Shown here piece by piece: positions 1,406-17,976 of a stretch of 17,976 bases of DNA (position 1 is the first letter of the stretch; each line of letters begins with the position of its first letter). The notes beneath the pieces were generated by a model. That model did no database searches. It had not been told where the DNA came from and saw only the letters and a program-made list of their open reading frames with translations. The translations under genes were made by a program, and so were the position numbers. The DNA comes from a bacterium (lineage in GTDB: Bacteria > Acidobacteriota > Blastocatellia > HR10). The stretch is from assembly GCA_041640655.1 (NCBI GenBank), contig JBEPZV010000046.1:1-17976 (forward strand), in the 5' to 3' direction.

Positions 1406-2956
1406 TCAGCATTGGACCAAGTCCTTCGCCGGCGAACAATCGGGGAATCGGCCATAGAGCCACGTCAGCTCCCGCAATCGTTCGCGGATCTCCGGCGTCA
1501 ACATCTCGCGACGAAATCGCCAGCGCCAGTTCCCCGTCGGCCGCGCCGGGCGATTCATCCTCGCTTCGCTGCCCAATCCCAGCACATCCTGAAGAGGGAT
1601 GATCGCCAGATCGGCCACCGATCCGAGCGCGGCGCGGATGAAGGCCCAGTGCACGGGCCGATCATCGAGGTCGAGATATTTTCGCGCCAGCTCTCGCTCG
1701 CGCTGCGCCTGCTCCGGCGCGAGCGTGCTCTCCTCGCCACTCCACCATCCGAGGATCGTATTGTTATCATGCGTGCCCGTGTACACCACGAGCTCACGCT
1801 CATGATGATGCGGGAGAAACGAGGAGGTGCACGGATCGCCGCCGAATGCGAACTGGAGGACGGCCATGCCGGGGAATCCGAAGCGCGTGCGCAGGGCTTC
1901 GACGTCGGGCGTGATCACGCCGAGATTCTCCGCCACGATGGGCAACTCGCCCAACGCTTGTTCCAAGGCTTCGAAGAAGGCCTCGCCCGGTCCCTGCACC
2001 CACCGACCGCGAATGGCCGTCGGCTCCGTCGCCGGCACTTCCCAATACGCCTGGAATCCGCGGAAATGGTCGAGCCGAATGATGTCCACAAGCCGCAGCA
2101 TCCATCGCACCCGATCAATCCACCACGCGTATCCGGCGCGAGCCATGACGTCCCACCGATAGATCGGGTTCCCCCACAACTGTCCGGTCTCGCTGAAATA
2201 ATCCGGCGGGACTCCGGCGACGACCGTGGGGTTCCCGTTCTCATCCAGATGGAAGAGATCGCGATGCGCCCACACATCGGCGCTATCATGAGCGACGTAG
2301 ATCGGGAGATCGCCCATGATCCAAATACCGCGTCGCCGACAGTAAGCGCGCAGCGCCGCCCATTGGCGGAAGAACTGGAACTCCCAATACTTCCGCATGG
2401 TGATCTCATGGGCCAACCTCCGCCGCCACTGGTCCAAGGCCTGCGGGTCCCGATGAGCGATCGGCGGATCCCATTGCGTCCACACGGCTCCGTCATGCGC
2501 CGCCTTCACGGCCATGAAGAGGGCGTAGTCCTCGAGCCACCACGCGTTCTCCCGACAAAACATTTCGAACGCCTCTTGCTCTTCCGCCGACGCCCGCGTC
2601 AGAAACCGCTCGAAGGCTTGTCGCAAGCGCGCCAGCTTGAACGGGATCACGCGCTCGTACTCCACCGTTCCCTCGGGGAAGTCCACGCCCTCTGCTTCCT
2701 CCGGTGAGAGGAGCCCCTCCTCAACGAGCATCTCCAAACTGATCAACAAGGGATTGCCGGCGAAAGCGGAGAAGCATTGATAGGGGGAATCGCCATACCC
2801 CGTTGGGCCCAAGGGAAGGATCGCCCAGATGCGCTGACCGGTCTCGACCAGAAAGTCCACGAACCGATACGCCTCCGGGCCGAGATCACCAATCCCCCCT
2901 CGGCTCGGGAGCGAGGTGATATGCAGAAGAATGCCACTCGATCGCGGCCACCGCAT
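1406..2956 (-). CDS. malQ: 4-alpha-glucanotransferase (amylomaltase, GH77), 516 aa
   Basis: RSSGILLHITSLP N-terminus, GDSPYQ..SAFAGNP, GVPPDYFSETGQLWGNP, RLDHFRG, AENLG, YTGTHDN, RMNRP. Start placed at ATG 2956 (MRWPRSSG), not 3130. Confidence 0.96.
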   Translation of the reverse strand: MRWPRSSGILLHITSLPSRGGIGDLGPEAYRFVDFLVETGQRIWAILPLGPTGYGDSPYQCFSAFAGNPLLISLEMLVEEGLLSPEEAEGVDFPEGTVEYERVIPFKLARLRQAFERFLTRASAEEQEAFEMFCRENAWWLEDYALFMAVKAAHDGAVWTQWDPPIAHRDPQALDQWRRRLAHEITMRKYWEFQFFRQWAALRAYCRRRGIWIMGDLPIYVAHDSADVWAHRDLFHLDENGNPTVVAGVPPDYFSETGQLWGNPIYRWDVMARAGYAWWIDRVRWMLRLVDIIRLDHFRGFQAYWEVPATEPTAIRGRWVQGPGEAFFEALEQALGELPIVAENLGVITPDVEALRTRFGFPGMAVLQFAFGGDPCTSSFLPHHHERELVVYTGTHDNNTILGWWSGEESTLAPEQAQRERELARKYLDLDDRPVHWAFIRAALGSVADLAIIPLQDVLGLGSEARMNRPARPTGNWRWRFRREMLTPEIRERLRELTWLYGRFPDCSPAKDLVQC

Positions 2957-2964
2957 AGGGGAGA

Positions 2965-2994
2965 ATGGTACGGAGCGAAGCCCCCGGAGAACAA
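2965..2994 (-). promoter_or_regulatory. Putative sigma70 promoter of malQ (TTGTTC-N18-TACCAT), 8 nt from the ATG; likely leaderless or near-leaderless
   Basis: Minus strand reads TTGTTC (2994-2989), 18 nt, TACCAT (2970-2965), TCTCCCCT, ATG; no Shine-Dalgarno. Confidence 0.5.
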
Positions 2995-3104
2995 GCGGGG
3001 ACTCAAGTCCTTCGGCGATCCCCATCGCGCGCGACCGAACGCCTCGCCTCCTCCACAGGGCGCTCGCGCCGCCCTGAGGGATCGCCTTGAAGCCACGGGT
3101 CTCG

Positions 3105-3133
3105 TTGAGTTTCACTGCGAAAGCTGTCATCCT
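3105..3133 (+). promoter_or_regulatory. Possible promoter of the redoxin-DUF488 unit (TTGAGT-N17-CATCCT with TG extension)
   Basis: TTGAGT 3105-3110, TG 3125-3126, CATCCT 3128-3133; the -10 match is imperfect. Confidence 0.3.
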
Positions 3134-3171
3134 GTTGCAGGAACGCTATGGAGCGAACCGAGAGAAACGCG

Positions 3172-3663
3172 ATGTCGCATCCCCATCCGGGCGAGCTGCT
3201 GCCGGATGTCACGTTGGTGACAGCGGCGGGACAGCCTGTGAGGATTTCGGATTATCGCGGGCAGCGGGCGCTCGTCCTCCTCTTCCTCGGAGAGCGCCAC
3301 GATGCCGCGCTCATCGAACTCCTCCGGGCACTGGCCGATCGTTATGCGGAGATCCATCGAGAGGAAGCGGAGGTCCTGGTGATCGCCCCCGATGCGCGCA
3401 CAGCGGCGGAAGCGATCGCACGAGCGCCGCGCGCTCTCCCCTCTCTCTTCCCCGTCCTCGTGGATGAAACCGGACGCGCGCATCGCGCATATGGAGTCGC
3501 GACAAGCGGAGCGCTCTATATCGCCGACCGATATGGCGAAATCTATTTCGCCCGCGTGATCACGGAGGGGGGCGAGCTGCCCTCCGTGGAGCATATCCTC
3601 TCGTGGGTCCGCTTCACGGAAGCCCAATGTCCGGAGTGAGGGGTTGCGGAATGGCCGGCGTAG
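3172..3663 (+). CDS. Redoxin/AhpC-TSA-like thioredoxin-fold protein; candidate selenoprotein with C-terminal CxxU (in-frame TGA 3637-3639)
   Basis: PGELLPDVTL...GQPVRISDYRGQRALVLLF...FPVLVDETG...YGV...LYIADRYGEI is the Prx/redoxin scaffold. It ends QCPE-TGA-GVAEWPA-TAG with a downstream hairpin. Alternative start ATG 3148. If TGA is a true stop, the CDS ends at 3639. Confidence 0.8.
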
Positions 3664-3676
3664 CCGGGGGCTACGC
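3658..3676 (+). promoter_or_regulatory. Candidate bacterial SECIS hairpin
   Basis: GCGTAGC(C)-GGG-(G)GCTACGC, a perfect 7-8 bp stem with a G-rich loop starting about 26 nt after the TGA. Confidence 0.55.
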
Positions 3677-3685
3677 GAAGATCGG

Positions 3686-4075
3686 ATGAGCCAGAGATCA
3701 GCACCGGAGATTCGCCTCAAGCGCGTGTACGATCCGCCCGATCCTGGCGATGGGCGTCGGTTTCTCGTCGAACGCCTCTGGCCACGCGGGATGAAGAAGG
3801 CCGCACTGCCGATGGACGGGTGGCTGAAAGAGGTCGCGCCCAGCGAAGCGCTGCGCCGATGGTTCGCTCACGATCCCAAGAAGTGGGAAGAATTCCAACG
3901 TCGCTACTTCGCCGAATTAGACCGCAAGCCGGAGGCGTGGAAGCCGCTGCTAGAGGCCGCGCGCCAGGGGACGATCACGTTGCTCTTCAGCGCTCGCGAT
4001 TTGGAGCACAATAGTGCCGTCGCCCTCCGCGTGTACCTGGAAGCGAAGCTCAGGGCGACCAAGGGCTCGGCCTAA
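3686..4075 (+). CDS. DUF488 family protein (YeaO-like)
   Basis: IRLKRVYDP...DGRRFLVERLWPRGMKK...WLKEVAPSEALRRWFAHDP..WEEFQRRYFAEL...ITLLFSARD.EHN.AVAL; start at ATG 3686. Confidence 0.93.
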   Translation: MSQRSAPEIRLKRVYDPPDPGDGRRFLVERLWPRGMKKAALPMDGWLKEVAPSEALRRWFAHDPKKWEEFQRRYFAELDRKPEAWKPLLEAARQGTITLLFSARDLEHNSAVALRVYLEAKLRATKGSA

Positions 4076-6051: not shown

Positions 6052-7074
6052 GTGCTCGGCGGAAACGGGAAGGGAGTGGGGTTCGCTCGCTGGTGCTCAT
6101 CGTTCAAACAGGTCCTTCCGCGCGTGGTGATAACCGGCGCGCTCGCGCTCGCCCTGTTGAGCGGGAGTTGCGGGAGACCATCTCCGGGGCCGATCCGCAT
6201 CGGATATAGTCCCTTCCCCGGACACGGGTTCCTCAGCCTCGCGGAGCACAAGGGGTTCTTTCGAGAAGAAGGGGTAGCGGTGGAGCTGCGAGAATTCAGC
6301 GCGTTTCCGGCAGCCGCCCAGGCCTATGAGGCCCATCGGCTCGACGCCTTAGCCAGCAGCCTGAGCGGCTTCCTGCAACTGGCGCAGAGGGTGAAGACCG
6401 CTAAGGGCGTCGCCGTGCTCGCCTACTCTGAGGGCGCTGAGGGTCTCATCGCCCAGCCTGAGATCCGGACGATTCACGAGCTGCGAGGGAAGCGGGTGGG
6501 CATCAGCCCTTGGGGCGTCGGGAGCTATCTGTGGGCGCGCTTGCGCGAACGCACGGGCTTGAGGGAGGAGGAGGTCACCGTGGTGAACCTCTCCGCCCAA
6601 GATGGCCAACAGGCCTTCCTGCGACGCGAGATCGAGGCGTGGCTGACCTTCGAGCCCTGGTTGACGCCAGCGGTTCGTCGTACGGGCGCGAACATTCTCT
6701 TCTCGAGCCGCGAGCTTCCGGGGGAAATCGCCGACGTGCTCTCAATCCAGGAATCGTTGCTGCAGGAACGCCGCGAGGAATGCCGACGGTTGCTTCGCGC
6801 CTACTTCCGCGCTGTGGCGTATGGCCGCACGCATCCGGAGGAGGCGGCGCGCTTCTTCGCCGAACGCTCGCGCGTCTCGATCGAAGAGGCGAAGGCGATG
6901 TTGGCCGGGATTCGATTCCTCGACCGAGAGGAGAATCTCCGCGCGCTCGACACGCCGGCCGGACGCGCCGCGCTCGAGCAGCTCATCGAACGCCACCGCC
7001 GAGTGAATATCATTCGCGAGGTCGAAGGGGTCTCTCAGCTCTTCGACGTCGCGCTGATCCGGGAACTCCCATGA
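6052..7074 (+). CDS. SsuA/THI5(NMT1)-like periplasmic substrate-binding protein, probable lipoprotein; start uncertain (GTG 6052, 6076 or 6124)
   Basis: Hydrophobic leader ending LLSGSC, then IRIGYSPFPG..FLSLAEHKGFFREEGV.VEL, YSEGAEGL, I.ELRGKRVG, TFEPWL, SSRELPGEIADVL; its stop overlaps the next ATG (ATGA 7071-7074). Confidence 0.88.
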   Translation: MLGGNGKGVGFARWCSSFKQVLPRVVITGALALALLSGSCGRPSPGPIRIGYSPFPGHGFLSLAEHKGFFREEGVAVELREFSAFPAAAQAYEAHRLDALASSLSGFLQLAQRVKTAKGVAVLAYSEGAEGLIAQPEIRTIHELRGKRVGISPWGVGSYLWARLRERTGLREEEVTVVNLSAQDGQQAFLRREIEAWLTFEPWLTPAVRRTGANILFSSRELPGEIADVLSIQESLLQERREECRRLLRAYFRAVAYGRTHPEEAARFFAERSRVSIEEAKAMLAGIRFLDREENLRALDTPAGRAALEQLIERHRRVNIIREVEGVSQLFDVALIRELP

Positions 7075-9809
7075 AGTCGAAATTCCATGGCCGACTCGCG
7101 CCTTCTCTCTCCGCATCGCTCGCCGTGGCGACCTTCGCGGGGACCTTTCTTCTCTCGGGATTGCTCGTGGTGCTGGATTATCACAGGCAGAAGGCCGCGG
7201 CGCGAGAAGAGGTCTACACGGATGCCGCCAATCTGGCGGGCAACCTGCGATACCCCGTTCAGATGCTGCTCGTTCGTCAGGATCACGGGATGTTGCGCTC
7301 GGTGCTCGAGAGCGCGGCGGGCGACCGCCGGGTGAAGCAGGCCCTTCTCATTGATCGGAGGCAGCGCATCCTGGCGGCTCATCGGTCCGATGTGGTCGGG
7401 CGAGAGGTCCAGGCGGTCCTCCCCGAAGCGCTTCCGCTGATACAGCGGGCGTTGAAGGAGAAACGCCCGCTGTACCAACCGCTCGCGAGTGCCTCCTTGT
7501 ACCTCGCGCTCATGCCGATTTCAACCACGGCCGAACAATACTTCCAGACGGAAGCGGCGGCCGTCCTATTGCTCGCTTTCGACACAGCGTTCCTCGATGC
7601 GCGCTTGAAGACCCAGCTGAGCGTGAGCCTGCTGACCCACGCCCTCAATGGCACGATCTTCGCGCTGCTGATCTTCCTGATCCTGGAACAGGTGGTGACG
7701 ACTCCGATCCGCCGCCTGGCGAAGGCGCTGCGCCAGGTTCAAGGGGGCGATCTGCGCGCGCGCGTGCGCATCCCCCGCGTGATCGAGCTGGGCGAGGTGG
7801 CCCATGCGTTCAACGAGCTGGTCCTCCGGCTGCGCGCATATTATGAGGAGCTGCAGCGCCAGCACCGCGAGCTGGAAGCGTTACACCACACCACCGAACG
7901 GATGAAGGAACAATATCGCCAGCTTGTGGAGCTGGCCCAAGAGGGGATCCTCATCGCAGACGCCAACGAGCTCATCCGCTATGTGAACCCCGCCTTCGCC
8001 CGTGCCCTGGGGTACGCCGAGGAGGAACTGATCGGGCGCTCTATCCTGAGCCTGATACCGGAAGAGGATCGTCCGCGGGTGACTGCCGAGACGGAGAAGC
8101 GACGGAGGGGGGAAAGCTCCCGCTACGAGGTGCGCATGCGAACGAAGGAGGGCGAGCTGCGAGACTTCCTCATCGCCGCCGCTCCCCTGTGGGATGAGGC
8201 GGGGACCTTCGCGGGCGCCTTGGCCGTGACGGTGGACATCACGGAGTTGAAGCGAAAAGAGGAGGCCCTCCGCCGTTCGGAGGAGCGATACAGCGATCTC
8301 TACAACAATGCCCCCGACGGCTACCACACGCTCGCTCCCGATGGCACGTTTCTGGAGATCAACGAGACGGAACTCCGGTGGCTCGGCTACCGGCGAGAGG
8401 AGGTCGTCGGGCAACTCACATTCGGCGATGTGCTGGATGAGCGCAGCCGACGTATCTTCGAGCACGCCCTCGTCTCCCTCAAGGAGGGGGGGACGGTCCG
8501 CGAACTGGAGCTGGAGATGGTTCGCCGCGATGGGACGCACTTCGCCGTACGCGTGAACATGACGGTGGAGGGCGATGAACAGGGCGCGCTCCGCTACCGG
8601 GCGACCGTGCGCGACGTGACCGAACAGAAGAGCTTGGAGAAGCAGCTCATGCACGCGCAGAAGTTGGAATCCATCGGCGCGTTGGCCGGGGGGATCGCTC
8701 ATGATTTCAACAACCTCCTGACGGGCATGCTCGGGTTCACCGAATTGGCCTTGCGAGAGCTCGACCCTCGGGACCCGCGTCGCGAATTGCTGCAGAACGT
8801 GCTCACTCTGGGACAGCGCGGTGCCCGGCTCGTCCGTCAACTCTTGACCTTCAGTCGGCGCATCGAGGTGCATCGCACCACGCTCGACGTGCGGGAATTC
8901 TTGAAGGAGATGGTCGGCCTGCTGCAACGCGTCTTGCCAGAGACGATCGCCGTTCGCCTGGACGTCTCCGAGCATATCGGATCGCTCGAGGCCGATCCCG
9001 TGGGGTTACAACAGGTCCTGATGAACCTCGCCGTGAACGCGCGCGACGCCATGCCGGATGGCGGAACGCTCACGATCTCATGTGCGCCGGTCACGCTCGC
9101 GAAGCCGGGAGTCCCACCACTCCCCCCGGATGCCCCGCCGGGCGCATACTTGCGCCTCTCGGTCGCGGACACGGGGATCGGAATGACGCCGGAGGTGCAA
9201 GCGCGCATCTTCGAGCCCTTCTTCACGACAAAGGAGGTCGGGAAGGGATCGGGGCTCGGCCTCTCGGTCGTTTACGGGATCGTGCGCGCTCACGGCGGAT
9301 TCATCACCGTCGAGAGCGCACCCGGTCTCGGAAGTCGGTTCGACCTCTACCTGCCTCTCACCGAACGCACGGCGATCCCCAGGGGAGGGGGGAGTACAAC
9401 TCCCCTGATCCGAGGCGCGGACGAGCTGATCCTCCTGGCCGACGACGAGCCGGTTCTTCTCGATCTTGAAGAGAAGGTTCTTCGCGCGCATGGTTATCGC
9501 GTCCTGAAGGCGCGCGATGGACAAGAAGCGCTGAGGCTCTATGAGGACCATCAGCGGGAGATCGCCGCGATCGTCTTGGACGCCCTGATGCCGGGGGTCA
9601 CAGGGATCGAAGCCGCCCGCCGGATTCGAGAGCGGGACGCGCGGGCGCGAATCCTCTTGGTCACCGGATACAACCCGGAAGAGAGCGGTCTCAACGGCAT
9701 TCGCGTGGAGAACGTGCACATCCTGCAAAAGCCATACACGCCACGACAGCTCCTGGAGACCATCGGGCACCTGTTGGGGAAGTCGCAGCAAGCCCCACTC
9801 CCGGCATGA
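7071..9809 (+). CDS. Membrane hybrid sensor histidine kinase (TM-periplasmic Cache-like-TM-HAMP-PAS-PAS-HisKA-HATPase-REC), 912 aa
   Basis: Two hydrophobic segments; HAMP (PIRRLAKALRQVQGGDL...ELGEVAHAFNEL); two PAS domains; H-box GIAHDFNNLL, N-box MNLAVNARDAM, DTGIGM, FEPFFTTK, GSGLGL; REC with LADDE/LDALMP/TGY/QKPY. True start is ATG 7071, not 6510. Confidence 0.95.
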   Translation: MKSKFHGRLAPSLSASLAVATFAGTFLLSGLLVVLDYHRQKAAAREEVYTDAANLAGNLRYPVQMLLVRQDHGMLRSVLESAAGDRRVKQALLIDRRQRILAAHRSDVVGREVQAVLPEALPLIQRALKEKRPLYQPLASASLYLALMPISTTAEQYFQTEAAAVLLLAFDTAFLDARLKTQLSVSLLTHALNGTIFALLIFLILEQVVTTPIRRLAKALRQVQGGDLRARVRIPRVIELGEVAHAFNELVLRLRAYYEELQRQHRELEALHHTTERMKEQYRQLVELAQEGILIADANELIRYVNPAFARALGYAEEELIGRSILSLIPEEDRPRVTAETEKRRRGESSRYEVRMRTKEGELRDFLIAAAPLWDEAGTFAGALAVTVDITELKRKEEALRRSEERYSDLYNNAPDGYHTLAPDGTFLEINETELRWLGYRREEVVGQLTFGDVLDERSRRIFEHALVSLKEGGTVRELELEMVRRDGTHFAVRVNMTVEGDEQGALRYRATVRDVTEQKSLEKQLMHAQKLESIGALAGGIAHDFNNLLTGMLGFTELALRELDPRDPRRELLQNVLTLGQRGARLVRQLLTFSRRIEVHRTTLDVREFLKEMVGLLQRVLPETIAVRLDVSEHIGSLEADPVGLQQVLMNLAVNARDAMPDGGTLTISCAPVTLAKPGVPPLPPDAPPGAYLRLSVADTGIGMTPEVQARIFEPFFTTKEVGKGSGLGLSVVYGIVRAHGGFITVESAPGLGSRFDLYLPLTERTAIPRGGGSTTPLIRGADELILLADDEPVLLDLEEKVLRAHGYRVLKARDGQEALRLYEDHQREIAAIVLDALMPGVTGIEAARRIRERDARARILLVTGYNPEESGLNGIRVENVHILQKPYTPRQLLETIGHLLGKSQQAPLPA

Positions 9810-9872
9810 AGCACCACTCCCCGCTCGCTTCGCGCCAGGCGCGCGAAGAGCGATCGAGAAAGGAGTTCGGCG

Positions 9873-11897
9873 ATGGCGAAACGCATTCTCGTTGTCGACG
9901 ACTCGCCGATCGAACTGAAGCTCACGGCGAGGATCCTCGACCAAGCCGGCTACGAGGTCCTCACAGCGACGAATGGGGCGCGCGCGCTCGCGCTCGCGCG
10001 CGAGACCCAGCCGGACTTGGTGCTCCTCGATCTCAACATGCCGCAGATGGACGGCTATGAGGTCTGTCGAAGGCTGAAGGAGGACGAGGCGACGCGCGCC
10101 GTTCCGGTCGTCCTCTACAGCGTGCGCGATCAGATTGTGGATGTGCTGCGCGGGCTCGAAGTCGGCGCTGAGGACTTCATCGTCAAAGGCACGCGGCGCG
10201 ACGAACTGCTCGCGCGCGTGCATCGCATCCTTCGGCGCGAGCGCGAGATCCCGCCGCTTGATCTCTCCGCGCTCGACGAAGCCCTCACCTGCCCGGAGGC
10301 TGAACCGATCGCCCGACTGCTAGAGGACACGTTTCATCGCCACGTGCGCCCCTGCTTGAACGCGCTCTTCGGCGTCCACCCAGCACTCCTTCTGATCGAA
10401 TGCGCCCGGCGACAAGCCGCCGAGCGCGCCCGACTCCTCCTCCCGGAGCACGGGGCATCGGACGCGGCGCTCTTCGATCCTCGCCGCGTGCGCCATGCCT
10501 CGACGGCCGAAGTGCTCGACGCGTTCAAAGCGTTCGCGTCTGAACTCCTGCTCGTCACGGCCAAGCTCGCTAACACCCGCATCTACGGCCCGCGAGAAAT
10601 GGATGAGGTGCTCCGGGCGTTCAAAACCATGCTCCACACCTTCTCCGAGCACCTTCACACCTGGCGTTCCCCATCGCCCGGCGGAACGAAGGCCCATCCC
10701 CCACGGCTCGAACCGAGTGGCGGCCCGCCCTCGACCGATGCCCCGACGGCTTTCACCTTCCTCCTCGATGCCGAGGGGCGGCTGCAGAATCTCGATGAAG
10801 ACCTGGCGAAGGCTCTCGGATATGAGAGGGCGGAACTCCTCGAAGCCTCCCTCGCCTCGCTCCTCCCCGACGCCGAGCGCGAAGCGCTTCAGGCGCTCCT
10901 GCGTGACGTCCGAACGCAGGGAAAGGCCGAGGGCAGGCTCATGCTGCGACGGCGGGATGGAACGCTCCTCCCGATCGCGCTCTCCTCACACGCGCTCTTC
11001 GACAGGCAGGGGAACCTCGTCCTCTCTCAACATCAGGCGAAGCGGCTCTCCGAAACTGCAGAGTGGACAGAACAGTTACGCCAGCTCCAGCACGAGTGCG
11101 ACCGCCTGCGCGAAGAACTTCAACGCGCCCACGCCGAGCATGAGACATTCCTGCACATCATCTCTCACGACCTTCGGCAGCCGCTGCAGATCATCTTGAA
11201 CGCCGCGCAGCTGCTTGAAGAAGAGGGCGGGACGCGGCTGGACGATTCCGCGCGCGAATACCTCACGGCGATCGAGCGCGCAGCCCTTCGCCTGCGCGAG
11301 ATGATCGGCGATCTCCTGAAACTCGCCCACATCACGCCCGAGGCCCTTCGTCGAGAGCCGACCGATGTGGGACGTCTCCTGGAGGAGATTCGCGAGACCG
11401 TATCCCCACTTCTGGAAGAACGCAACGCCTGGCTCACGCTCACCGGCCCCTGGCCCATCATCCTCGCGGACGCCGCCCATCTGCGTCTGGTCTTCCTCCA
11501 CCTCCTTCAGAACGCGCTCACGTTCAATGACAAGCCGCGCCCGCTCGTCGAGATCGGGTGCGCGCCGACCGCCGATCCGGAGCACACGTTCTACGTGCGC
11601 GATAATGGGATCGGCATCGAAGCCCAGCATTGGGAGCGAATCTTCCACGTCTTCCAGCGGGTGCATTCCGAGGAGGAATTTCCCGGACGAGGCGTGGGAC
11701 TCGCGCTCTGCAAGCGGATCATCGAGGCGCATGGCGGACGCATCTGGGTCGAATCCACGCCGGGTGTCGGCAGCACGTTCTTCTTCACCCTCCCGGCGGC
11801 GAACCTCCCCAAAGAGAGCCTGGCTCTGTCGGAACTGTCCGAAGGCGGCGGGATTCATGCGGAGAGGGTTCGCGAAGCCCCCCTCTCGCGAGGATGA
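9873..11897 (+). CDS. Cytoplasmic REC-(unknown helical domain)-PAS-histidine kinase, 674 aa
   Basis: SD AAGGAG; N-terminal REC (VVDDS, LLDLNMPQMDGYEVCRRLK); PAS; H-box ISHDLRQPL; NALTF, DNGIGI, IFHVFQR, GRGVGLALCKRI..HGGRIWVES.PG.GSTFFFTLP; no TM segment seen. Confidence 0.93.
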   Translation: MAKRILVVDDSPIELKLTARILDQAGYEVLTATNGARALALARETQPDLVLLDLNMPQMDGYEVCRRLKEDEATRAVPVVLYSVRDQIVDVLRGLEVGAEDFIVKGTRRDELLARVHRILRREREIPPLDLSALDEALTCPEAEPIARLLEDTFHRHVRPCLNALFGVHPALLLIECARRQAAERARLLLPEHGASDAALFDPRRVRHASTAEVLDAFKAFASELLLVTAKLANTRIYGPREMDEVLRAFKTMLHTFSEHLHTWRSPSPGGTKAHPPRLEPSGGPPSTDAPTAFTFLLDAEGRLQNLDEDLAKALGYERAELLEASLASLLPDAEREALQALLRDVRTQGKAEGRLMLRRRDGTLLPIALSSHALFDRQGNLVLSQHQAKRLSETAEWTEQLRQLQHECDRLREELQRAHAEHETFLHIISHDLRQPLQIILNAAQLLEEEGGTRLDDSAREYLTAIERAALRLREMIGDLLKLAHITPEALRREPTDVGRLLEEIRETVSPLLEERNAWLTLTGPWPIILADAAHLRLVFLHLLQNALTFNDKPRPLVEIGCAPTADPEHTFYVRDNGIGIEAQHWERIFHVFQRVHSEEEFPGRGVGLALCKRIIEAHGGRIWVESTPGVGSTFFFTLPAANLPKESLALSELSEGGGIHAERVREAPLSRG

Positions 11898-11900
11898 AGC

Positions 11901-12830
11901 TCAACTCTCCACCTCGACGTCCGATCGGGAGACGGCGCGTCCGGTCGTATCCACATCGAGGATCAGCGACCGGGCGGACACGCCGTGACGCTCGAAGCAC
12001 GCGACCAGCTCCTCGCCGATCTTTCGGAAATTGCTCGACGCGATGGCGACAACCGTCGGTCCGGCCCCGCTCAGCGCCACGCCGACCAGGCCATCCACAT
12101 CGCGAATCTGCAAGACATCGGAGAGGCCGGGAACCAAGCTCTGCCGATACGGCTGATGCACGCGATCGCGCATGGCCTCGCGAACCAAATCGAATCGGTG
12201 ACGGCGCAACGCCGGCCAAAAGAGCGCGACGCGCTGCAGATTGAAGATGACATCCTGCAGCGGGATCTGCTCGGGCAGAACGCTCCGCGCCGTCTCCGTG
12301 GCCAGCAGCACGTCGGGGACGACAGCGACGATCTTCAGCTCCGGAGGCCATTCGTCCTGAATATATCGCACCTTCCCATCTTCCGTCCGACAGGTGAGGA
12401 CAAGCGAGCCGACGGCCGACGGCGTCACGTTATCGGCATGGCCCTCAAGTTCGCAGGCATAGGCGAGCAACTTCTCCTCACCGAGCACGCGCCCGGTCAT
12501 CGCCTCGAAGGCCGTCAGGCCCGCGACGATGGCCGCTCCACTTCCCCCGAGGCCACGGGCGACCGGGATCTGGTTCTCGATCAGCAGACGCACCTTCGGC
12601 ACCGCGACCCCCTCGCGCTCCCCGGCGAACTGCATCGCGCGCACGATCATGTTCCGCTCATCGGTCGGGATGAGCGAGGCGTCCACCCCCTCCACGAACA
12701 CTTCGTGTGCGGGTGCGGTAGCATTCAACTTCTCCACGCGAACCTTCAGATACACGCGGAGCGCTAATCCCACCGTATCGAAGCCCGCTCCGAGATTGGA
12801 TGTTGAACCCGGTACTCGGATCTCGATCAT
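11901..12830 (-). CDS. thrB: Homoserine kinase (GHMP family)
   Basis: RVPGSTSNLGAGFDTVGLAL, IPVARGLGGSGAA, EGHADNV, DRVHQPYR, LSGAGPT; start ATG 12830. Confidence 0.95.
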   Translation of the reverse strand: MIEIRVPGSTSNLGAGFDTVGLALRVYLKVRVEKLNATAPAHEVFVEGVDASLIPTDERNMIVRAMQFAGEREGVAVPKVRLLIENQIPVARGLGGSGAAIVAGLTAFEAMTGRVLGEEKLLAYACELEGHADNVTPSAVGSLVLTCRTEDGKVRYIQDEWPPELKIVAVVPDVLLATETARSVLPEQIPLQDVIFNLQRVALFWPALRRHRFDLVREAMRDRVHQPYRQSLVPGLSDVLQIRDVDGLVGVALSGAGPTVVAIASSNFRKIGEELVACFERHGVSARSLILDVDTTGRAVSRSDVEVES

Positions 12831-12862: not shown

Positions 12863-14416
12863 TCAACTCAGTGCAGTATACACGCGCTCTCTCAGGGCAT
12901 CAAGCGGCGGATGAAGGCCCGTCCAGAGCCGAAACTGCTCGGCCGCCTGGCGCAGGAACATCTCCACGCCGGAGAGAACCGGACATCCCATCTGTTTCGC
13001 CCGGCGCAGCAGGGGTGTCTCCAAGGGGTTGTAGACGAGATCGTACACCAGAGGCCGATGGCGCAGCGCCTCCTCAGGGATCAGCTCCTGCTCCGGATAC
13101 CCCGACATCCCAACGGGCGTGGCGTGGATCAAAACGTCGAACGAATGCGCGGCCAGTTCGGCCAGCGCATAGGCTTTCGCCCCGATCGCTTCCGCCAGCT
13201 CCCGGACACGCTCCAGACGTCGCCCGAAGAGGAGCACACGCGCGCCGCGCGCGCGCACGCCGTAGGCCAGTGCGCGCGCAGCCCCTCCCGCTCCCACGAT
13301 CGCCACGCGCGCTCCCTCCAGAGCGATGCGCTCGGCCAACGGCTCCGTCCCCCCCGCGACATCGGTGTTGTGGCCCACAAGACGCTCTCCCTCGACGACG
13401 ATCGTATTCGCCGCGCCGACGCATCGCACCATGGACTCCACATCGTCCAAGAAGTTCAGGACCGCGAGCTTATGCGGGATCGTGACACTCAAGCCACGCA
13501 GCCGCCACGGCATCTGCCGCGTCTCCGGTCGCACGAAATCGCGCATGAAGCGATCGAGCGCCGCGACTTCAAGCGGCACGTACACGAAATCCAATCCGAG
13601 GAGACGGAATCCCGTATTGTGCACCAGCGGCGAGAGGGAATGGCCGATGGGATGCCCGATCACCCCCGCGACGACCGTTTGCCGCCCGAGTTCCGTGACC
13701 CGATAGAGCGCGCGCAATTCCGAGACGGGGATCTGTCCGGGAGCTGTCTCGCGCCCGGTTGCGGCCGCACCATAGGTGAAGGCGCTGCCGTAGGCCACGC
13801 CGAGAATGCGTGTCAGAAGTCCTGCCCTCCCCATCGCGATCCCCACCAGCTCCCTCCCCTCCTGCCGAGCGCGCTCCAGGAGGCGAAAGATGAGGAGCGA
13901 ATCCCCAATATCGTGAGCAAAGAGGGCGAGCTTCAGAAACCGCGCCGGAACGGCACGCACCCGCTCGTACAGGGCCAGGACATCCTCCCACCGCACCGCG
14001 TCATACCGATGGTGCGAGAGGATCACCCGCTCCCAGGGGAGAACGCCCGAACGCTCGGGTGGGGCAGCATGGAGGAACGCCTCGACGAGATCCATCTCCA
14101 GATCGTAGAAGAGGCGCGCGCGCACCTCCCCCCGCTGCTCCGCCCACGCGATCACCTTCGACCAGAATCGCAATCGTTCGGAGAGCGATGCAGCCGCATA
14201 CCCCCCTTCCTCACGAGGCCGATACGTCAGAATGATCGGCTTCGCCGTCGCCCCCACGACCGGAGCGAGAACCGATGTGGGGTCCCCCACCGGATGTCTC
14301 CCGAGCGCATCCAGGCGCAGCTCGACTCCATCGGCGACTTCGTCCACCGACGCCATCACCGCCAGCGCGCGCTCCAGCGTCGGCTCCGCCACAGACGCGA
14401 CGAGCTTCATGGACAT
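12863..14416 (-). CDS. aroE: Bifunctional type I 3-dehydroquinate dehydratase / shikimate dehydrogenase (AroD-AroE fusion)
   Basis: N-half: VELRLD, LTYRPREEGG, DLE, ILSHH, FLKLA, IAMG..G..TR, APGQ. C-half: GHPIGHSLSPLVHN, SVTIPHK, GAANT, HNTD, GAGGAARA, YDLVYNP.ETPLL, GVEMFLRQA..QF. Start ATG 14416 or 14410. Confidence 0.93.
   Translation of the reverse strand: MSMKLVASVAEPTLERALAVMASVDEVADGVELRLDALGRHPVGDPTSVLAPVVGATAKPIILTYRPREEGGYAAASLSERLRFWSKVIAWAEQRGEVRARLFYDLEMDLVEAFLHAAPPERSGVLPWERVILSHHRYDAVRWEDVLALYERVRAVPARFLKLALFAHDIGDSLLIFRLLERARQEGRELVGIAMGRAGLLTRILGVAYGSAFTYGAAATGRETAPGQIPVSELRALYRVTELGRQTVVAGVIGHPIGHSLSPLVHNTGFRLLGLDFVYVPLEVAALDRFMRDFVRPETRQMPWRLRGLSVTIPHKLAVLNFLDDVESMVRCVGAANTIVVEGERLVGHNTDVAGGTEPLAERIALEGARVAIVGAGGAARALAYGVRARGARVLLFGRRLERVRELAEAIGAKAYALAELAAHSFDVLIHATPVGMSGYPEQELIPEEALRHRPLVYDLVYNPLETPLLRRAKQMGCPVLSGVEMFLRQAAEQFRLWTGLHPPLDALRERVYTALS
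12875..12903 (-). promoter_or_regulatory. Near-consensus sigma70 promoter for thrB inside the 3' end of aroDE
   Basis: Minus strand TTGATG (12903-12898), 17 nt, TATACT (12880-12875). Confidence 0.6.
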
Positions 14417-14425
14417 AACTTCGGC

Positions 14426-14469
14426 ACTATAGCACATCCTCATCCCGACGAGGAACCTTGTGCTATACT
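14426..14469. promoter_or_regulatory. Divergent pair of extended -10 promoters forming an 11-bp inverted repeat
   Basis: Minus strand TGTGCTATAGT (14436-14426) and plus strand TGTGCTATACT (14459-14469), 22 bp apart. Confidence 0.65.
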
Positions 14470-16824: not shown

Positions 16825-17976
16825 TCATCGAGTCGCGGTGCCGAGCGCTTCTTCTGCAATCCGACTCGGCCCTGCTTCCTCCAACGCCCGAATCACCAGG
16901 CCGGGCGTCAACAGCTCCGGCAGCGTGATGGGCTCCGTCAGCCGACCGGCCGGGAAGATCACATAAAACGGCACGCCGGACCGGCCGAACTTGGCGAGCA
17001 TGCGCGTGATCTCCGGATTGCGATTCGTCCAATCGGCGCGAATGGCCGTCACGCGCAACTCGCGCATCTTCCGGCGGACGGCCTCCGACGCGAGAACCGT
17101 TCGCTCGTTCACCTTGCAGTTCCAACACCACTCCGCGGTGAAGTCAATGAAGACGGTCTCCCCCCGTCGGACGCGCCGTTCGATATCGGCCAGCGAGAAC
17201 GGCTTCCACTCGATCTCCTCCCCAGACGTTGCGGTCGCCGGGGACTCCGCCGCGAGGGCGCGCGCCTCTCGCCACCGCAACTCCTTCTCAAACGCCCAGA
17301 CGTAGCCCCCGAGCACCAGTGCCGCGGCGACTCCCCACGTCCCCCATCGGCGTCCCCGCGACGCCTGCGGCCCCACCTGACCGATCATCCATACGGCGAC
17401 GGCGACCACGAGGAGGAAGACGCCGGTCCAGATGACCGCCTCTAATCCCATCTGGCTCCCCAGCACATCGAGGAGCCACAGGAGCGCGCCGAGGAGGAGA
17501 AACCCCATCGCCTGCTTGAATCGCACCATCCACATCCCGGGTCGCGGGACGAATCGCAACCACTGCGGATTCCACGCGAGCACCACGTAGGGGAGAGCCA
17601 GCCCGAGAGCGATCGCCGTGAAGACGAGCCAAACGATGCGCCCCGGTTGCGCGAAGGCGAATCCCACGGCCGTCCCCAGAAACGGCGCCGTGCACGGCGT
17701 CGCCAGCGTCGTCGCCAGAACGCCATTGAAGAAGGCCCCTACCCTTCCCGGCTGCTCCAACCACCGCGAACGGACGCTCGGACTCCGAAATTCGAAGACG
17801 CCGAAGAGATTGAGCGCGAAGACGAAGATCACCGTGCTGATGACGACGATGAACGTGGGGGATTGAAATTGGAAGCCCCATCCGATCTGCTCGCCCGTCG
17901 CCCGCAAGGCGATGACGCCTCCGGCCAGCGCCCAGAGCGACACAAGCACGCCCGCGGCGAAGCTCATGCCCATCAG
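16825..17976 (-). CDS. dsbD: DsbD-family protein-disulfide reductase (5'-partial): TM domain plus C-terminal thioredoxin
   Basis: WGFQFQSP, FFNGVLATTLATPCTAPFLG, PRPGMWM..FKQ.MGF, VFIDFTAEWCWNCKVNE, ADWT, FGRSGVPFYV; frame open to the window end. Confidence 0.9.
   Translation of the reverse strand: MMGMSFAAGVLVSLWALAGGVIALRATGEQIGWGFQFQSPTFIVVISTVIFVFALNLFGVFEFRSPSVRSRWLEQPGRVGAFFNGVLATTLATPCTAPFLGTAVGFAFAQPGRIVWLVFTAIALGLALPYVVLAWNPQWLRFVPRPGMWMVRFKQAMGFLLLGALLWLLDVLGSQMGLEAVIWTGVFLLVVAVAVWMIGQVGPQASRGRRWGTWGVAAALVLGGYVWAFEKELRWREARALAAESPATATSGEEIEWKPFSLADIERRVRRGETVFIDFTAEWCWNCKVNERTVLASEAVRRKMRELRVTAIRADWTNRNPEITRMLAKFGRSGVPFYVIFPAGRLTEPITLPELLTPGLVIRALEEAGPSRIAEEALGTATR

Follow-up and report, generated by a model that had tools for sequence, protein, structure and literature searches.

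Predicted bacterial selenoproteins built on the AhpC/TSA-type fold, the peroxiredoxin (Prx)-like thiol:disulfide oxidoreductases and the Redoxin selenoproteins (PF00578/PF08534; UxxC or UxxU), have selenocysteine (Sec) where helix 1 begins, in the canonical active site, in a UxxC motif that places it three residues from a cysteine, and their selenocysteine insertion sequence (SECIS) lies just 3' of the UGA (PMC13188914, PMC2398784). Table 1 of a 2026 review, a catalogue of 119 families, gives the AhpC/TSA- and redoxin-type families the motifs TxxU, UxxC/UxxU, UxxS or UGC at the core site, the sole exception in that table being Prx-SUH (NF045827) with CxxU (PMC13188914). BSepDB, according to the body of its description, was built on the same family list as this catalogue (PMC13326102), and a Prx-like family with a C-terminal CxxU is absent from Table 2 of the GOS study (PMC2398784). 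Here we describe a gene at positions 3148(3172)-3663 of a 17,976-nt stretch of DNA from a bacterium of the phylum Acidobacteriota; this stretch, hereafter the window, is contig C46 (JBEPZV010000046.1) of G000, a 3.1-Mb assembly in 128 contigs that is 89.8% complete. The product shares with the proteins above the fold, the spacing between Cys and presumed Sec and the placing of a putative SECIS, but its canonical site is empty (D52...L55), and the predicted Sec is the second position of a CxxU in the tail, eight residues from the end. We consider it very probable that this is an unannotated selenoprotein gene encoding a cytoplasmic protein with the fold of peroxiredoxins and bacterioferritin comigratory proteins (BCPs).

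At this locus a mechanical open reading frame (ORF) caller returns 3148..3639, a product of 163 amino acids that ends at TGA 3637-3639. Read directly in the frame of this ORF, the last codons are TGT (3628-30), CCG, GAG and TGA (3637-39), and the same frame continues with GGG GTT GCG GAA TGG CCG GCG before TAG at 3661-63. Translation with TGA as U yields 171 amino acids with the C-terminus CPEUGVAEWPA, in which Cys161 is the sole cysteine. The codons thus bear out the preliminary description of this locus, which had read C-P-E-U-G-V-A-E-W-P-A and a stop, with the TGA at the second position of a CxxC-type motif behind the only Cys of the protein. The ATG at 3172, which is Met9 inside the caller's ORF, coincides with the place where several homologues begin or have an internal Met, and judging from these alignments either 3148 or 3172 is possible as the start; inspection of the N-terminus by eye did not reveal a signal peptide. 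The features of the gene are:

3148..3663, + strand: full candidate selenoprotein gene, 171 codons and a stop, based on the ORF, the read-through translation, the Pfam AhpC-TSA match and orthologue matches

3172..3663, + strand: the same gene from the alternative start ATG 3172 (Met9), 163 codons

3628..3639, + strand: codons of the C-x-x-U motif, Cys161-Pro-Glu-Sec164, aligned to the invariant CPEC of the family

3637..3639, + strand: TGA predicted to encode Sec as residue 164; Cys in homologues, with TGA kept in G001-G004, G006 and G093

3640..3660, + strand: seven-codon tail G-V-A-E-W-P-A after the predicted Sec, with mostly synonymous change in the genus and the same peptide behind the Cys forms

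3661..3663, + strand: TAG, the predicted true stop, within the 5' arm of the hairpin

3658..3676, + strand: proposed SECIS hairpin, an 8-bp stem with a GGG loop that starts 27 nt past the UGA

An observation of this kind in a single sequence is merely suggestive, and the weight of the case is therefore carried by comparative evidence. Relatives were sought in 61 genomes (G000 and 60 others) in six frames with stops read through, taking E <=1e-20 as the family level. In six of these (G000, G001, G002, G003, G004 and G006) the match extends to residues 169-171 across exactly one TGA. The TGA form is thus kept in five of the six other genomes of the genus; the sixth, G005, which is 73% complete, has paralogue-level matches only. 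Two genomes of the same order but another family (G010 and G011) carry the gene without an in-frame stop and with Cys at the TGA column. The translations in the genus read QCPE*GV[AS]EWPA (asterisk, stop codon), with the variant EWLT in G004, and those of G010 and G011 read QCPECHLPEWP. An evenly drawn sample of 401 genomes from the phylum, searched at E <=1e-15 with eight candidates scored per genome, listed only two further members, one in the TGA form (G093, tail CPE*GVSEWPV*) and one in the Cys form (G226, tail CPECTQAEWPRDD*). The TGA is therefore not peculiar to one strain: it recurs in the genus, a single distant genome of the phylum shares it, as do 61 distinct environmental variants, and it is identical in contigs from four public runs.

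Protein databases show the same alternation. A word-indexed search returned 34 relatives, 24 of which carry QCPECG, mostly with EWP after it, in agreement with the homologue ending QCPECG..EW that had initially been suggested. The other 10 stop exactly at QCPE, and in all eight of these that could be traced to DNA the next codon is TGA, never TAA or TAG (P0003 and P0006 are the two records without traced DNA). An exhaustive profile search of 1.84 billion cluster representatives found 254 at E <=1e-30; among the best 150 of these, 80 have CPEC, 52 terminate at CPE, 12 have a different CxxC such as CDEC or CEEC, and six are of other kinds. In an alignment of 91 sequences, Q160, C161, P162, E163 and C164 are invariant, with the TGA of the window at the C164 column, and G165 is kept in at least 90% of the sequences. 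Cys and TGA therefore alternate at one column, with a conserved G-x-x-E/D-W-P after it.

The sequence behind the TGA behaves as coding sequence. Across the genus and close environmental relatives the synonymous changes in the tail are GGG/GGC, GTT/GTC, GAA/GAG, CCG/CCA, GGG/GGA and GCG/GCA, while the non-synonymous changes within the genus amount to Ala/Ser at the third codon and, in one genome, Pro to Leu together with Ala to Thr. The peptide behind the TGA, G-V/A-x-E/D-W-P, is that found behind Cys in the Cys forms, and beyond the hairpin the sequence is fully divergent between species. A 589-nt contig from a sediment metatranscriptome library (run X20, ~96% identical) spans 3150-3738 and takes in the whole ORF with its TGA, then the hairpin, and the initial 53 nt of the DUF488 gene that follows.

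These comparisons bear on the plainest alternative, in which translation simply terminates at TGA 3637, with QCPE as the end of the protein and the hairpin as an unrelated terminator, messenger RNA stabilizer or repeat. Public gene calls do end at this codon. Termination here would, however, leave a conserved unpaired Cys and lose the invariant second Cys of the motif, and it is at odds with the agreement between the post-TGA peptide and the Cys forms, with the largely synonymous changes there, and with the presence of TGA in eight of eight traceable truncated proteins. The TGA almost certainly encodes Sec eight residues ahead of the true end of the protein, and the comparative evidence supports the initial claim that standard annotation shortens this selenoprotein by eight residues.

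The perfect 8-bp hairpin GCGTAGCC-GGG-GGCTACGC at 3658-3676 is present as originally described; its loop begins 27 nt past the last base of the TGA, rather than the approximately 26 nt given at first. To compare tails, distinct 71-nt tails were scored for the best simple hairpin of at least 5 bp with a loop start index of 16-41, counted from the U of the UGA. All 61 TGA-form tails have such a hairpin (median -9.5 kcal/mol; 42 reach -8 kcal/mol or lower). Among the 47 Cys-form tails only 22 do, the median is 0, and six reach -8 kcal/mol or lower (Mann-Whitney p = 1.4e-13, a value overstated by the non-independence of relatives). Hairpins are thus associated with the TGA forms. With the tail of G093 added, 60 of 62 loops contain GG or GU and the loop start index lies between 19 and 33. 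The in-frame stop falls inside the hairpin in 48 of the 62 tails; in the other 14 the hairpin is wholly coding, and its 3' arm adds 3-4 residues (V/G-G-P/S) to the protein tail.

Sixty distinct tails were sorted by hairpin type, and three named types account for 52 of them, seven fitting none and one having been misfiled with the type of the window. The window's type, GCGUAGCC-GGG-GGCUACGC, comprises eight distinct tails. The second, also with eight distinct tails, has its register three bases earlier (CCGGYGUA-GGU-UACRCCGG) and contains one fully compensatory pair, C-G in four tails, U-A in four and broken in none. The third and largest (UGGCCC-GNN-GGGYCA, 36 distinct tails) is that in which the 3' arm encodes the 3-4 extra residues; 86% of its cells are paired, compared with 30-50% when the partner is slid. 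In the window's type the outermost pair is broken in one genome, and in three the closing pair is open, giving a 5-nt loop.

The placing of the hairpins, with a G-containing apical loop ~17-31 nt past the UGA, resembles that of the SelB-bound SECIS of E. coli fdhF. The window hairpin differs in that the UGA is here so near the end of the gene that the true stop would sit in the stem and the 3' arm would be untranslated (the arrangement in 48 of the 62 tails), and in the loop itself, which is GGG. The E. coli fdhF SECIS has the loop GGUC. There is no U tract 3' of the window hairpin, a terminator scan is empty at this position, and the genome contains no second copy of the 19-mer at up to 3 mismatches, all of which argue against an unrelated terminator or repeat behind an ordinary stop.

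The genome encodes the machinery that Sec insertion would need. Its tRNA-Sec, at 75.2 bits well over the gathering score of 47, is called by ARAGORN as tRNA-SeC with anticodon TCA; selA (586 bits), selB (372 bits) and selD (365 bits, with one in-frame TGA of its own) are present, and all four components lie above their curated cut-offs. TGA forms of the gene occur only in genomes with selA, in seven of seven checked (G000 and six others), which further disfavors an ordinary stop; selA is also found in the Cys-form genomes G010 and G226, and in G011 as a contig-end fragment only. The selD gene has a hairpin of its own (loop GGUCG) whose loop start index of 29 from the U of the UGA is identical to that in the window gene, and the corresponding index in a PrxU-type gene on contig C15 is 26. 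The selD gene (C2:48263-49189; L018) has its in-frame TGA in the context HGAG-U-ACK, and the PrxU-type peroxiredoxin (C15:44502-44894; L171) has TGA at the peroxidatic position (FTGG-U-TRE) and is a further selenoprotein candidate.

Several observations weigh against reading this TGA as Sec. The folding of the 71-nt region is ordinary (z = 0.16, with 110 of 200 shuffles folding at least as well), and its unremarkable energy would suit an ordinary stop. Perfect hairpins of at least 8 bp are common in this G+C-rich genome: a scan of its first 40 contigs (2.36 Mb) counted 705, giving a chance expectation of ~0.008 per 26-nt window behind a stop, or about one in 130 stop codons. The six Cys-form tails with strong hairpins weaken the exclusivity of the association, although these hairpins may be relics. 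The core stem of the window's type is invariant, without compensatory changes, and covariation in the third type is not above that of shuffles, so that what carries the case is the difference between TGA forms and Cys forms, together with the alternative ways in which the hairpin is built, rather than covariation statistics; of the expectations for the hairpin, its presence in TGA forms and absence from most Cys forms held, while covariation proved weak where it was tested. The window loop lacks the U of the E. coli fdhF loop, and in Rfam, searched with 3400-3900 at E up to 10, the four matches are all irrelevant and score far short of their gathering thresholds. The 67 environmental TGA-form loci were fetched with a degenerate pattern requiring GGN-G...GAN-TGG-CC after the TGA, and their downstream conservation is to that extent built in, a partial circularity from which the genus genomes, G093 and the protein libraries, as sets without motif bias, are free. 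The X20 contig from an RNA library shows presence in the library and is not proof of transcription. Finally, the case for selenium in the protein consists of sequence and model evidence. With these points weighed, we hold with strong confidence that the gene is a selenoprotein gene, actual insertion of Sec at TGA 3637-3639 being what we infer from sequence; an ordinary stop codon appears very improbable.

Among the Cys forms, three loci from Terriglobia/Acidobacteriota metagenome-assembled genomes (L057, L060 and L061) have a strong 8-bp hairpin of -7 to -12 kcal/mol at the SECIS position behind the TGY codon, which may be a relic of a recent switch from Sec to Cys. A Cys form is also carried by a cultured bacterium, Thermithiobacillus tepidarius DSM 3134 (L090). 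Another Cys-form locus (L031, from G010) has a 13-bp perfect hairpin that starts ~21 nt past the Cys codon and overlaps the stop, and that may be a terminator or a relic.

We next consider the protein. Pfam assigns it to AhpC/TSA (PF00578) with 50.8 bits against a cut-off of 26, and Redoxin is also matched. No NCBIfam model reaches its cut-off, the best being SelL_rel_redox with 29.2 bits against 120, and none of the NCBIfam redoxin selenoprotein models (SelL-related NF040769, WAxxUGC_long, PrxU, deiodinase_rel) scores above its curated cut-off. Prx-SUH is likewise a peroxiredoxin-related selenoprotein with CxxU, but its model NF045827 (cut-off 298 bits) is absent from the NCBIfam matches of the window protein at E up to 1 and, run over the whole genome at E up to 10, gives no match to the window gene; the model matches three other genes, at C2:69948, C15:44502 and C26:24901.

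An AlphaFold2 model built on the 91-sequence alignment has a mean pLDDT of 88.7 and a pTM of 0.85. Foldseek aligns it with typical 2-Cys peroxiredoxins and BCPs (E ~1e-10, TM 0.69-0.80), and a profile search of PDB sequences places M. tuberculosis AhpE (Rv2238c) and BCPs closest (E ~3e-15), so that by both profile and fold these are the closest solved relatives (PDB 4xih, 1xvw, 3drn, 3hjp). They differ from the window protein in having a peroxidatic Cys and in lacking the C-terminal CPEC/U motif; no solved PDB chain aligns past profile position 159 of 174, leaving this motif without a solved counterpart. A natural Cys homologue compared with the ESM Atlas returned generic AhpC/TSA clusters only. 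A core C-x-x-C, whose second Cys is the counterpart of the AhpE peroxidatic Cys in the profile alignment, is present in many members of the family, in Sec and Cys forms alike, and lost in the clade of the window, in Gemmatimonadales and in several Acidobacteriota Cys forms. In the window protein the corresponding residues are D52-A-A-L55, and the Thr and Cys of the P-x-x-x-T-x-x-C pocket at the start of helix 1 are gone. The redoxin fold first proposed is therefore upheld and refined to a peroxiredoxin/BCP-fold protein without the active-site cysteines of that fold and, judged by these residues, the protein should not be filed as a canonical peroxiredoxin. Since Q-C-P-E-C/U is invariant while the core C-x-x-C can be lost, the C-terminal pair would be the sole possible redox center in the window protein and, as the alignment indicates, is the constant, essential feature of the family.

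Three multidomain records were found alongside these relatives. P0020 (289 amino acids) joins a CMD/AhpD domain to a redoxin with a CPEC tail, in a single cluster of two sequences. P0048 (1430 amino acids), with five AhpC/TSA stretches, and P0161 (517 amino acids), with SurA-N and two redoxin domains, are family members or near relatives.

The fold raises the question of whether the protein is a true peroxidase after all, with its catalytic chalcogen moved to the tail, Sec164 as the peroxidatic residue and Cys161 as the resolving one. That the nearest solved relatives are peroxiredoxins and BCPs speaks for such an activity, as does the fusion of the relative P0020 to an AhpD domain. AhpD is the partner of AhpC in mycobacteria. 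The fusion is, however, confined to the one cluster, the pocket of the window protein lacks its Thr and Cys, and the model offers no support for the tail reaching the pocket, the tail pLDDT being low. A displaced peroxidatic center is thus conceivable but somewhat unlikely.

We favor instead a mobile redox arm. In this proposal, SelB with Sec-tRNA(Sec) would bind the hairpin at 3658-3676 and allow UGA 3637-3639 to be decoded as Sec164; the ribosome would then melt the hairpin, add seven residues and terminate at UAG 3661-3663 within the stem. The resulting Cys161-Pro-Glu-Sec164, in a flexible tail past the last helix, would be the only redox-capable group of the protein, and most likely forms a reversible Cys161-Sec164 selenenylsulfide that serves as the center of a swinging-arm thiol/selenol oxidoreductase. 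Reducing equivalents would travel on this arm between a partner and a substrate that the redoxin body binds and, in members with four Cys, between the core CxxC and the outside. The probable target of the protein is a partner or substrate that its redoxin body holds. Against so specific a role for the tail, residues 161-171 are modeled at low confidence (pLDDT ~56-61).

Arms of this kind have precedents. In typical 2-Cys peroxiredoxins such as human Prx2 (PDB 5ijt, 1qmv), the mobile C-terminal arm bears a single resolving Cys, whose partner is the core peroxidatic Cys of the opposite subunit, and mammalian thioredoxin reductase, a flavoprotein, has a GCUG tail with adjacent Cys and Sec near the C-terminus that form a selenenylsulfide. 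As a mechanistic analogy, the window protein would have in common with both a redox Cys or Sec on a mobile arm past the last helix; it differs in that its pair is C-x-x-U and in that the core Cys is missing from its clade.

The same tail can also be read as a metal site. C-P-x-C-G is the classic rubredoxin/zinc-knuckle motif, and in this alternative Sec is inserted, but the C-P-E-U-G tail is a rubredoxin/zinc-ribbon metal knuckle and not a redox pair, completing a four-ligand site with the core C-x-x-C in ancestral members and relying on a dimer or a partner in the clade of the window. The presence of the motif, with G165 so widely kept, counts against a redox arm, and many members have exactly four Cys/Sec residues, in a core CxxC and a tail CxxC/U; DSSP finds a short turn at residues 162-164 of the model. 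The review's tabulated families also include predicted metal-binding selenoproteins, among them the zinc-ribbon-type FmdB family with UxxU (PMC13188914). The tail motif is, however, invariant in clades without the core CxxC, so that a complete intramolecular site is not required; the second Cys pair is absent from the window protein, and its DUF488 neighbor has no conserved Cys with which to complete a site. Moreover, among the selenoproteins catalogued there, the usual interpretation of a CxxU on a thioredoxin fold is a redox one (PMC13188914). We therefore judge a metal knuckle to be unlikely and redox rather than metal chemistry to be reasonably likely.

The selenoprotein gene stands in the order polA end, malQ, selenoprotein gene, DUF488/YeaO-like gene, amidohydrolase, its immediate neighborhood being:

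2-895: end of polA

1406-3130, - strand: malQ

3686..4075, + strand: DUF488 (YeaO-like) gene, PF22752, 1.8e-45, a conserved downstream neighbor

The DUF488/YeaO-like gene, which falls into PF22752 'inactive DUF488-N3 subclade', starts 22 nt past the stop, and the two genes are probably co-transcribed. A DUF488 gene lies immediately downstream in 24 of 119 loci, many of which have 700 nt of flank or less, and also in G226. The linked loci (L054-L071, L078, L125 and L174) belong to Acidobacteriota and Gemmatimonadota; the carriers are the genus of the window, one other Sec form (L125), Acidobacteriota Cys forms and Gemmatimonadales Cys forms, and all except L125 are without the core CxxC. DUF488 was considered as a thiol partner and rejected, as it has no conserved Cys. 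Membership of DUF488 in the rhodanese-phosphatase superfamily found no support in a search, which gave nothing relevant, and DUF488 is found fused to ParB-CTPase folds in archaea.

The genomic link allows a more far-reaching proposal, in which the peroxiredoxin scaffold has moved its chemistry wholly to the C-P-E-U/C-G arm and, in clades without the core Cys, works with the adjacent DUF488, the arm acting on DUF488 itself or on a substrate that DUF488 holds. We regard this as speculative and, taken as a whole, improbable; if true, it would give the first functional handle on DUF488 and a natural bacterial 'TrxR-style' selenenylsulfide tail whose SECIS straddles its own stop.

The relation of the Sec and Cys forms was examined in a quick maximum-likelihood tree of 102 distinct members (57 Sec and 45 Cys, obtained by differently biased fetches, so that their ratio is meaningless). 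The two forms are interleaved, with at least seven changes by parsimony, of which well-supported branches force at least two.

Other features were seen elsewhere in the window. Perfect hairpins occur at 7425-7484 (12 bp, loop ~8 nt, inside the hybrid histidine-kinase ORF 6510-9809), at 9806-9866 (at least 8 bp, in the gap between two sensor-kinase genes, near 9836), at 9957-10017 (at least 8 bp, in a GCGC-rich run near the start of 9873-11897) and at 12633-12693 (at least 8 bp, inside an opposite-strand GHMP-kinase gene). Two further genes on the - strand encode fusions: type I dehydroquinase with shikimate dehydrogenase (aroD-aroE) at 12863-14443, and a DsbD-type transmembrane domain with Thioredoxin_7 at 16825-17973, running off the end of the window.

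The search for tRNA-Sec, selA, selB and selD that had been proposed for this genome thus found all four, and the family to which the gene belongs is apparently uncatalogued: it is absent from the NCBIfam selenoprotein models and from the main table of the 119-family catalogue (PMC13188914). The truncated public records of close relatives bear the names 'Thiol-disulfide oxidoreductase ResA' and 'peroxiredoxin family protein'. Thioredoxin-fold selenoproteins that a SECIS recodes are known in kind; what is new is Sec on a C-terminal CxxU arm of a peroxiredoxin body without core cysteines, a SECIS that straddles the stop, and the link to DUF488.

About a third of the family clusters (52 of the best 150) are recorded at least eight residues short and without their selenocysteine. 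As the family is both truncated and uncatalogued, selenoproteome counts for hot-spring, soil and sediment bacteria are too low. For the recoding process, the family provides a well-populated natural case of a bacterial SECIS that overlaps the stop or imposes a few additional residues on the protein. Having Cys forms next to Sec forms, with and without the core CxxC, it also offers a simple natural system in which to ask what role the C-terminal CxxU arm plays.

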